A stretch of 45,057 nt of DNA from the sequence record PP925821.1. One strand, given 5' to 3'. This stretch comes from Escherichia phage Eeyore. Below the pieces are notes generated by a model, which was not told where the DNA came from, searched no databases, and worked only from the letters and a program-made list of their open reading frames with translations. Positions 2,811 through 3,733 of this stretch are shown here, piece by piece (position 1 is the first letter of the stretch; each line of letters starts with the position of its first letter). A program made the translations under genes and the position numbers.

Positions 2811-3074
2811 TTATCCATTTTGCCGGACAGTTGGGAATTCAGACGTCAGCCACATGTCGGATTCATCAAACATTTCCTCCAGCATACGGTTCAGCTTTTC
2901 CCGATCACTTTTGCTGGCATCACTATTTAAGCCGTTCGCCTGCATCGGCTTTACCTTCACTTCGGCATCAGGAAAAATCTGGTGCACCCGCTTCGTTAGT
3001 TCAGCCAGGATGATCTCTCTGGCCCCTTGGAGCCCTTCAACATTTCGCTTGTCATAAACCAGTTCAACAAACAT
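2811..3074 (-). CDS. dinI: DinI-like SOS-inducible protein
   Basis: 87 aa from internal ATG at 3074 (SD GAGAGGA); ELTKRVHQIFPDAEVKV...EEMFDESDMWL resembles E. coli DinI. The track's upstream extension to 3293 would include the promoter region. Confidence 0.7.
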   Translation of the reverse strand: MFVELVYDKRNVEGLQGAREIILAELTKRVHQIFPDAEVKVKPMQANGLNSDASKSDREKLNRMLEEMFDESDMWLTSEFPTVRQNG

Positions 3075-3130
3075 ACCGATCCTCTCATAAGTGAAAAATG
3101 CCTGTGCTTGATCTGATTTCATAAAAATAC

Positions 3131-3150
3131 TACTGTATATGTATACAGTC
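3131..3150. promoter_or_regulatory. LexA box (SOS operator) in the dinI-like promoter
   Basis: TACTGTATATGTATACAGTC = CTG-N10-CAG with (TA)n core. On the minus strand it lies in the spacer between -35 TTGACT and -10 TATTTT, 57 nt upstream of the dinI-like ATG. Confidence 0.75.
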
Positions 3151-3173
3151 AATAAGCGAGTGAGGGTGCGTTC

Positions 3174-3413
3174 ATGCCTCGTCAACCGGATATTCGTGCT
3201 GCTTTTATTGCGGCCATACAGCAAAACCCGAAGGGCTATCTCTGCCTGCATACAGACAGATTCATCACTGAACTGCAGGAGAGGCACTGGCATTTCAGCC
3301 AGGCGGATGCAAATTCATGGATCGAACGATACCAGCCAGACTTCGCCGATAAGACGACAAACGGAAGTGAGAACCGATACTGGATCCTGCGTAACATGGG
3401 GAGGGTTTTCTAA
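3174..3413 (+). CDS. Hypothetical protein (b-region accessory gene)
   Basis: 79-aa ORF divergent from dinI-like; start 24 nt past the LexA box; stop overlaps the next start (TAATGG). Confidence 0.45.
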   Translation: MPRQPDIRAAFIAAIQQNPKGYLCLHTDRFITELQERHWHFSQADANSWIERYQPDFADKTTNGSENRYWILRNMGRVF

Positions 3414-3733
3414 TGGGGTTTCCATCGCCAGCCATGGATTACCAGGAGCAGCGCATGACGATAGATGTTATCTGCGGTGTAGATAACAACTGCCGGGTTA
3501 TTGAAACTTCATGCGGCTGGGCCGTTATAAACGTCAGTCTTAAGCCAGAAGGAGGGGATACGTTGCTGGTTAGCATGGACGGGAGAAACCAGTTCGTGAA
3601 GCTAATGGGCCACGCCCTGATCACTCAAGATGGTGAAGCGATAGAAGGGGAAGCTTTGAATGACGTAATGGTACACGGCGTTCTTACACATACACTTAAC
3701 CAAGTAAAAGACGATAAATCGCCTGTAATGTAG
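3413..3733 (+). CDS. Hypothetical protein (b-region accessory gene), translationally coupled to upstream ORF
   Basis: 106-aa ORF; ATG overlaps upstream stop. No recognisable motifs. Confidence 0.45.
   Translation: MGFPSPAMDYQEQRMTIDVICGVDNNCRVIETSCGWAVINVSLKPEGGDTLLVSMDGRNQFVKLMGHALITQDGEAIEGEALNDVMVHGVLTHTLNQVKDDKSPVM

Follow-up and report, generated by a model that had tools for sequence, protein, structure and literature searches.

A predicted SOS-controlled cassette of DinI-like, winged-helix and compact UmuD'-like genes beside attP of Escherichia phage Eeyore

Results

Two gene units diverge from a predicted LexA box

The sequence of Escherichia phage Eeyore (PP925821.1; 45,057 nucleotides, hereafter the window) is the complete, permuted 45-kb genome of a lambdoid phage of the HK97/HK140 type. 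We analyzed a locus next to its attachment site (attP) at which a DinI-like gene and a pair of open reading frames (ORFs), ORF79 and ORF106, named for their lengths in amino acids (aa), diverge from a predicted LexA box (Table 1). An earlier reading made from the letters of the genome, the sequence-only reading, had described a near-consensus LexA box within a TTGACT/TATTTT promoter of a DinI-like gene, with two translationally coupled ORFs reading away from it, and each of these elements was recovered. The predicted box, TACTGTATATGTATACAGTC, matches the 20-mer consensus TACTGT-(AT)4-ACAGTA at 18 of 20 positions, leaving two mismatches. Matches to the 20-mer with up to three mismatches occur twice in the window, compared to 0.00 expected from shuffled sequences, and the core CTGT-N8-ACAG occurs three times, compared to 0.39 expected.

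The DinI-like protein matched Pfam PF06183 with 78.6 bits (cut-off 24.2; E value 4.4e-22; model positions 2-63 of 63) as well as phrog_189, 'RecA filament binding protein DinI'. It fell below the chromosomal-DinI equivalog NF007893 of NCBIfam (37.9 vs 111 bits), and was 82-100% identical over most of its length to phi80 dinL and to DinI-like genes of HK140, mEp390 and other coliphages. By these scores, the gene is best read as a phage MsgA/DinL-type paralogue and not as an orthologue of chromosomal DinI. As a member of this family, its product probably binds the groove of the RecA filament and modulates co-protease activity; DinI and UmuD bind the same groove (PMC9926225).

The stop codon of ORF79 and the start codon of ORF106 overlap by one base (TAATG), and a Shine-Dalgarno sequence precedes each ORF, consistent with the proposed translational coupling. 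Among relatives in IMG/VR, the median ratio of nonsynonymous to synonymous substitution rates (dN/dS) was 0.07 for ORF79 (1898 pairs) and 0.10 for ORF106 (454 pairs). Such strong purifying selection marks both as real genes.

The LexA box is enclosed by the leftward TTGACT-17 nt-TATTTT site and overlaps its -35 element and spacer. This -35 element (ACAGTCAAT on the plus strand) is found in loci with dinI and is replaced in Klebsiella and Erwinia loci that lack dinI. On the other strand, the -10 element TACTGT of a candidate promoter for ORF79 and ORF106 is the left arm of the box itself. The spacing TTGATC-N17-TACTGT is exact in E. coli-type and Klebsiella loci despite differing spacer sequence, and this conservation suggests that the box controls transcription in both directions.

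A CTGT-N8-ACAG box lies 29-42 nucleotides upstream of the ORF79 ATG in all nine annotated relatives, including Klebsiella phages RCIP0114 and RothD and Erwinia phage Midgardsormr38, all three of which are without dinI. Among 80 IMG/VR loci, the box is upstream of ORF79 in 75, mostly at exactly -41, and a DinI-like gene is divergently upstream in 76. Because the box is kept upstream of ORF79 even in phages without dinI, SOS control is probably broader than the sequence-only reading had proposed. Records of phiKO2, P1 and phi80 give the equivalent sites as LexA sites, in phi80 as a predicted one at an annotated dinL. SOS control of the cassette is plausible.

Two further LexA-like cores were present in the window. 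One, CTGTATATGCAAACAG at 3941-3956, lies in the arm of attP that separates the tRNA-Pro core from the 3' end of the integrase gene (int). The surrounding sequence, TTGACTGTATATGCAAACAGTGCATTTTT, is similar to the dinI promoter/operator and is oriented antisense into int. Another E. coli strain has a diverged attL copy (81% identity) that keeps this box as CTGTATGCGCAAACAG, although its sequence just upstream differs. The core could be a LexA site, or it could be part of the arm sites for integrase, IHF or Xis. The other, CTGTAAATATAAACAG at 20327-20342 (three mismatches to the 20-mer), falls within the opening codons of a gene (20317-21369) for an N6/N4 DNA methyltransferase (Pfam N6_N4_Mtase, E value 5.9e-44).

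ORF106 is a compact relative of UmuD' and HumD

ORF106 matched PHROG 3469, 'UmuD-like', from end to end (E value 2.4e-47). A profile of 31 family members aligned to a HumD/UmuD profile in hhalign with a probability of 99.1% (E value 1.2e-18; residues 1-106 against 1-129). When the AlphaFold model of ORF106 was searched with Foldseek, the best matches in the PDB were the UmuD' structures 1umu, 1i4v and 1ay9 (TM score ~0.55); the C-terminal domains of LexA and lambda CI ranked next. A single-sequence comparison of ORF106 with LexA found no similarity, which places ORF106 with the UmuD/HumD branch. The family comprises 182 members at 90% clustering, nearly all of 105-106 aa, from Escherichia, Enterobacter, Klebsiella, Lelliottia, Cedecea and Raoultella.

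The first 15 residues of ORF106, MGFPSPAMDYQEQR, align to UmuD residues 25-38. UmuD is cleaved between Cys24 and Gly25 in a reaction stimulated by RecA (PMC9926225). In this alignment, the start of ORF106 is the new N-terminus of UmuD', made in pre-processed form with the glycine that follows the cleavage site. The family shows no variation at M1, G2, F3, S5, P6, A7, D9 and Y10, and almost none at P4. F26 and P29 of UmuD contact RecA in a cryo-electron microscopy complex (PMC9926225); their equivalents in ORF106, F3 and P6, are among the invariant residues. A helix and the C-terminal strand, also invariant in the family, probably correspond to the dimer elements of UmuD'.

An acidic-then-hydrophobic tail (ORF106 residues 97-106, window 3701-3730) is common to HumD and the 106-aa family and is not shared by UmuD. 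Its endings include DDKSPVM and NDDCPAI in the 106-aa family and EFDDCPVM in HumD, and one variant ends in DDCPF. The tail is of low confidence in the ORF106 model, where it is disordered. The last residue is hydrophobic in 96 of 99 family members, at least two of the last eight residues are acidic in 74, and the full pattern of acidic residues followed by P-x-hydrophobic is present in only 43. The C-terminal tip of SSB is DDDIPF, and the ORF106 tail could be a short docking motif of this kind, an idea that the counts partly support. A role in dimerisation is at least as likely as SSB-tip mimicry, by analogy with the C-terminus of UmuDAb (PMC11332147).

ORF79 has a predicted winged-helix fold and is coupled to UmuD'-like genes

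The only library match for ORF79 was PHROG 3893, for which no function is annotated. Comparisons with Pfam and NCBIfam gave sub-threshold noise only, no match was found among PDB sequences, and its model matched only its own HK225 homologue among BFVD structures. There was likewise no similarity to P1 Lxr, Gifsy-2 GftA or E. coli LexA. The AlphaFold model is confident, with a predicted local distance difference test score (pLDDT) of 83 and a predicted template modelling score (pTM) of 0.73. Its topology of helices (H) and strands (b), H-b-b-H-H-b-b, fits the H1-b-H2-H3-b-hairpin order of a winged helix. An exhaustive HMMER search of 1.8 billion representatives with an ORF79 profile returned 175 proteins, nearly all of ~79 aa, and ORF79 is 70-97% conserved across phages of several genera. 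The family is narrow and uncharacterised, with no function annotated in the libraries searched. The sequence-only reading had found no recognisable function in either ORF. This holds for ORF79, albeit now with a confident winged-helix model, and no longer holds for ORF106, given its PHROG 3469 match, its hhalign probability and its UmuD'-like model.

A UmuD'-like ORF follows ORF79 in 66 of 80 IMG/VR loci, its start overlapping the ORF79 stop codon by one base. Of these coupled loci, ~47 carry the 105-106-aa form and ~12 the 128-129-aa HumD form. Klebsiella and Erwinia phages show the same pairing. Behind ORF79, the slot is mosaic, holding the 106-aa form in Eeyore and a 129-aa HumD in HK140 (gp28; HK140 locus 3105-3494) and in a prophage of E. 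coli ABWA45. The 129-aa protein scores 222 bits on the HumD equivalog (cut-off 120; 221.8 bits for HK140 gp28) and aligns to UmuD' over its whole length. Near-identical ORF79 genes precede either form. The DNA of the window stops resembling that of HK140 ~30 nucleotides into ORF106 (window 3413-3442), so that the conserved codons of the N-terminal arm look like a recombination joint.

HK225 has no UmuD'-like gene in this slot; its ORF79 homologue is extended to 99 aa (HK225 locus 2828-3127) and is followed by an invertase gene. Three metagenomic proteins of 148-187 aa (P0381, P0507 and P0473) were considered as ORF79-UmuD' fusions and rejected as frameshifted read-throughs, either artefacts or pseudogenes. 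In each, similarity to ORF79 is lost midway and an out-of-frame stretch follows before MGFPSPA. Such read-throughs indicate that distant relatives of ORF79 also precede a UmuD'-like gene.

Table 1. Coordinates of the cassette and neighboring features in the window
Feature	Position	Strand	Details
DinI-family gene, MsgA/DinL-like	2811-3074	minus	87 aa; start at 3074, preceded by GAGAGGA
Predicted LexA (SOS) box	3131-3150	palindromic	TACTGTATATGTATACAGTC; core CTGT-N8-ACAG at 3133-3148
Leftward dinI promoter-like site	3124-3152	minus	-35 TTGACT (3152-3147), 17-nt spacer, -10 TATTTT (3129-3124)
Candidate rightward ORF79-ORF106 promoter	3108-3136	plus	-35 TTGATC (3108-3113), 17-nt spacer, -10 TACTGT (3131-3136)
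ORF79, predicted small winged-helix protein	3174-3413	plus	79 aa; pI ~8; phrog_3893
ORF106, compact UmuD'/HumD-like protein	3413-3733	plus	106 aa; starts MGFPSPAxDY; acidic-hydrophobic tail
Terminator-like hairpin	3802-3827	called on minus	11-bp stem, A/T runs on both sides; between ORF106 and attP core
attP core	3839-3888	minus	50 nt; identity to the 3' end of the tRNA-Pro gene
Integrase gene	4021-5214	minus	
Hin/Pin-type invertase	2214-2768		
Crossover-like sites	1327-1347, 2121-2141	plus	opposite in orientation to the next pair
Crossover-like sites	44089-44109, 44904-44924	minus	opposite in orientation to the previous pair

The cassette lies at the att end of the genome

The order of genes and features in this part of the genome is tail-fibre cassettes, Hin/Pin-type invertase, dinI/ORF79/ORF106, hairpin, a copy of the tRNA-Pro 3' end, and integrase. 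The region is matched by the Escherichia phages Phi06_2987 S (97.7%) and Flotzy (95.1%), partly by HK140, HK225 and LLS, and also by prophages in 34 of 5426 complete E. coli genomes. Its base composition does not set the cassette apart from its flanks.

The position beside attP, also part of the sequence-only reading, was confirmed by the attP core and the nearby integrase gene. A query spanning the core matched 5424 of the 5426 E. coli genomes, nearly all at 99% identity or higher, and the core is invariant across three aligned attL copies. In a prophage of E. coli EC2641, the same cassette abuts the tRNA-Pro gene next to yejM. ARAGORN found no complete tRNA in the window, and an Rfam scan of 2700-4100 gave chance-level matches only. 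The terminator-like hairpin was called on the minus strand; it has A/T runs on both sides and may also end the plus-strand ORF79-ORF106 transcript.

In the EC2641 prophage (locus 1-3647), the invertase, dinI, ORF79, ORF106 and tRNA-Pro follow baseplate J/gp47, YmfQ and gp53-like genes, which are not lambda-type tail genes. The cassette seems to travel with the invertase and the att end rather than with one tail type. A pattern search of the window found four copies of a 21-bp site, CTACTTCCYAAACCGACVTTT, that resembles Cin/Hin-type crossover sites (0 expected); a search for inverted repeats of at least 18 nucleotides in 1-2300 found none. Beside the Hin/Pin-type invertase, the four sites flank the tail-fibre gene together with two alternative cassettes for its C-terminus, which are inverted (684-1337 and 1346-2083, minus strand). 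Together, the sites and the invertase look like a multi-segment switching system for tail fibres and host range.

Discussion

The cassette is a variant of known phage SOS cassettes

The arrangement in Eeyore is not new; it is a variant of cassettes annotated in phiKO2, P1 and phi80. In phiKO2 (gp22, DinI; gp23, UmuD-like) and N15 (gp26), as in the window, a DinI-like gene and a pre-processed UmuD'-type gene diverge at one annotated LexA site, in an accessory region after the tail fibre genes. The HumD proteins of these phages are 128-129 aa long and directly follow the operator without an ORF79, whereas in Eeyore the winged-helix gene lies in between and the UmuD'-like protein is only 106 aa long and fails the cut-off of the HumD model.

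P1 carries lxr, a LexA box and humD. P1 HumD is LexA-regulated and, like ORF106, is a UmuD' homologue without the N-terminal 24 residues that starts with MGFPSPA; its acidic C-terminal tail ends in DDCPVI. It differs from ORF106 in being 129 aa long and in keeping a serine at the aligned Ser60 position as well as the lysine, whereas ORF106 is without the nucleophile loop. The divergent neighbor in P1 is Lxr, a 190-aa protein that is not DinI and is unrelated to ORF79.

The same order of dinI, box, ORF79, UmuD-like gene and attP is found in HK140 (gp26-gp28), mEp390 (gp24-gp26) and Flotzy. The 106-aa form itself is present in mEp390 and Flotzy, whose records already call it 'UmuD-like protein', while in HK140 the 129-aa HumD form follows an ORF79 of 78% identity. 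In all three records, the LexA box is not annotated and the ORF79 homologue is given no function.

Chromosomal and plasmid systems offer another parallel. In plasmid impCAB, ImpC is a DinI-type protein. Both E. coli umuDC/DinI and impCAB share the players and the predicted logic of the window, with a UmuD-type protein under the control of an SOS box and a DinI-type protein alongside. Eeyore differs from them in having an extra winged-helix gene and no umuC or impB polymerase gene next to it, and its UmuD-type protein would neither need cleavage nor be able to cleave.

A cassette that may modulate RecA and polymerase V during induction

Our preferred interpretation, to which we assign a rough probability of 0.55, is that the SOS response switches the cassette on and that its products modulate the RecA filament and polymerase V while the prophage is being induced. 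In a lysogen, a single LexA dimer bound at the box would block two overlapping promoters, a leftward TTGACT/TATTTT promoter for the DinI-like gene and a rightward TTGATC/TACTGT promoter for ORF79 and the coupled ORF106. After DNA damage, RecA would be activated, LexA would cleave itself and both transcripts would appear. The phage repressor (10360-11055, minus strand) has helix-turn-helix (HTH) and Peptidase_S24 domains like lambda CI (E value 3e-21), and induction is therefore expected to proceed through RecA-stimulated self-cleavage, a step that DinI-type proteins can modulate. The same damage signal would also cleave the phage's own S24-type repressor, while the DinI-like protein, seated in the groove of the RecA filament, would tune co-protease activity.

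ORF106, for its part, would be made already 'processed'. Because it starts at the cleavage glycine and has lost the nucleophile loop, it would bypass the slow, DinI-sensitive, RecA-dependent maturation of UmuD. Its probable targets are those with which UmuD' interacts (UmuC, the RecA filament or UmuD), and by engaging them it would alter lesion bypass of the polymerase V type while damaged phage and host DNA replicates. ORF79, a winged-helix protein produced in concert with ORF106, would be its partner, probably by binding either ORF106 or the target of ORF106. In this scheme, we infer LexA binding, the rightward promoter and all protein-protein interactions of the cassette.

Several observations weigh against this interpretation. 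The -10 element of the rightward promoter is weak, matching the consensus at three of six positions, and a consensus promoter scan made no call there. HumD occurs without ORF79 in P1, N15 and phiKO2, which indicates that ORF79 is dispensable for HumD function in general, and deletion of the dinI homologue in Gifsy prophages had no significant effect on induction (PMC3121763). ORF106 itself scored 33.8 bits against the HumD equivalog NF051876 (cut-off 120), aligning only to model positions 1-76 of 129, and its all-beta AlphaFold model is of moderate confidence (pLDDT 65). It is ~20 residues shorter than HumD, and the residues missing from the hhalign alignment include a nine-residue loop that carries the nucleophile Ser60. 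The equivalent of Lys97 is variable in the family (K, R, I or V), and Y52 of the RecA-L2 pocket is an arginine in ORF106. With a score below the HumD cut-off, no Ser60 loop, an unconserved Lys97 and this substitution at Y52, it is doubtful that ORF106 works with UmuC. No match to Pfam Peptidase_S24 was found for ORF106, and since the Ser60 loop is missing and Lys97 is variable, the protein is predicted to be a pre-processed UmuD' fold without the protease dyad.

Alternative explanations

The same losses give rise to a possible, more tentative explanation, in which ORF106 is an inhibitor or decoy UmuD' without catalytic residues that forms heterodimers with host UmuD or UmuD' or occupies the RecA groove. 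During induction, such a decoy and the DinI-like protein would jointly damp mutagenesis by polymerase V or the co-protease activity of RecA, either shielding the phage genome from mutagenesis or tuning the cleavage of CI and LexA. The lost nucleophile loop, the unconserved Lys97 equivalent and the score below the HumD threshold fit a decoy, as do the retained dimer elements and RecA-contacting N-terminal arm with its invariant F3 and P6. A decoy would also travel fittingly with a DinI-like binder of the RecA filament, as ORF79 loci do in 76 of 80 cases. There are precedents for small proteins that bind S24-fold proteins and alter SOS output, namely GIL01 gp7 with LexA and DdrR with UmuDAb (work cited in PMC11332147). 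However, the 106-aa and 129-aa forms interchange behind near-identical ORF79 genes, which suggests equivalent roles, and the 129-aa type is linked to mutagenesis: P1 HumD is annotated as complementing UmuD' and is reported to support mutagenesis (McLenigan 1999, as cited in PMC11541004). The unconserved Y52 of the RecA-L2 pocket also argues against a decoy that occupies RecA. Within the preferred interpretation, ORF106 may be either a substitute for UmuD' or a decoy.

We also considered whether ORF79 could be a small protein under LexA control that acts as an antirepressor or a trans-acting regulator, like GfoA/GftA of Gifsy or Tum of 186, and that would couple induction of its own or a co-resident prophage to SOS. 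The Gifsy dinI-gfoA/gftA-irsA and 186 Tum loci sit outside the immunity region and combine a LexA box with a DinI homologue and a small protein of ~75 aa, and a dinI homologue is similarly adjacent in Fels-2 and PSP3 (PMC3121763). ORF79, at 79 aa, is close in size to GftA (73 aa), and its modelled winged-helix fold could bind a repressor or DNA. Unlike the Gifsy and 186 genes, ORF79 is divergent from dinI rather than in the same operon, and in 66 of 80 loci its coupling is to a UmuD'-like gene rather than to an immunity type. Its hhalign probability against Gifsy-2 GftA was 0.2%, the N-terminal half of Tum being outside this comparison, and the CI of Eeyore is a cleavable HTH-S24 repressor that needs no antirepressor. 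Conservation of 70-97% over several genera would fit a conserved host target better than a phage-specific repressor. We therefore consider an antirepressor role for ORF79 unlikely.

It is also quite unlikely that ORF79 and ORF106 form a two-piece, non-cleavable regulator of the LexA or UmuDAb type. ORF79 would be the winged-helix piece and ORF106 the S24-fold dimerisation piece that starts at the cleavage-site glycine, so that two separate but coupled genes would encode a pair resembling the two fragments that LexA autocleavage yields. Appearing only once LexA is destroyed, this pair could re-occupy SOS-type operators or dock on RecA filaments. If this were true, it would amount to a RecA-insensitive, phage-owned brake or timer on the host SOS response.

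Least probable of all is that the two ORFs are defence or anti-defence cargo in a b-region slot, an idea that the sequence-only reading had raised for this position, and are unrelated to DNA-damage tolerance: although moron genes are common next to att and ORF79 has no annotated function, PADLOC gave no match for ORF79 or ORF106 (E values up to 0.1) and a chance-level one for the DinI-like protein (E value 0.019, 12.3 bits), ORF106 is homologous to UmuD'/HumD, two of the three proteins have homologues in the SOS/RecA pathway, and the combination of an SOS box with a DinI gene resembles the units of phiKO2 and P1.

Implications

Phage-borne, SOS-controlled DinI and UmuD' genes are already known, and the cassette itself is no surprise. 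What is unstudied is the 106-aa family, a natural 'minimal' UmuD' that has shed the protease loop while its N-terminal arm stays invariant and its C-terminal tail is conserved. Such a protein could reveal what the arm and tail do apart from cleavage, for example in contacting RecA or UmuC. Equally unstudied is ORF79, the winged-helix partner, whose gene is nearly always in translational coupling with a phage gene of the UmuD' type. Should these proteins increase or decrease the activity of polymerase V, damage-induced mutagenesis would be altered by prophages that are widespread in E. coli, Enterobacter and Klebsiella, which, if true, would bear on the evolution of antibiotic resistance under SOS-inducing drugs.

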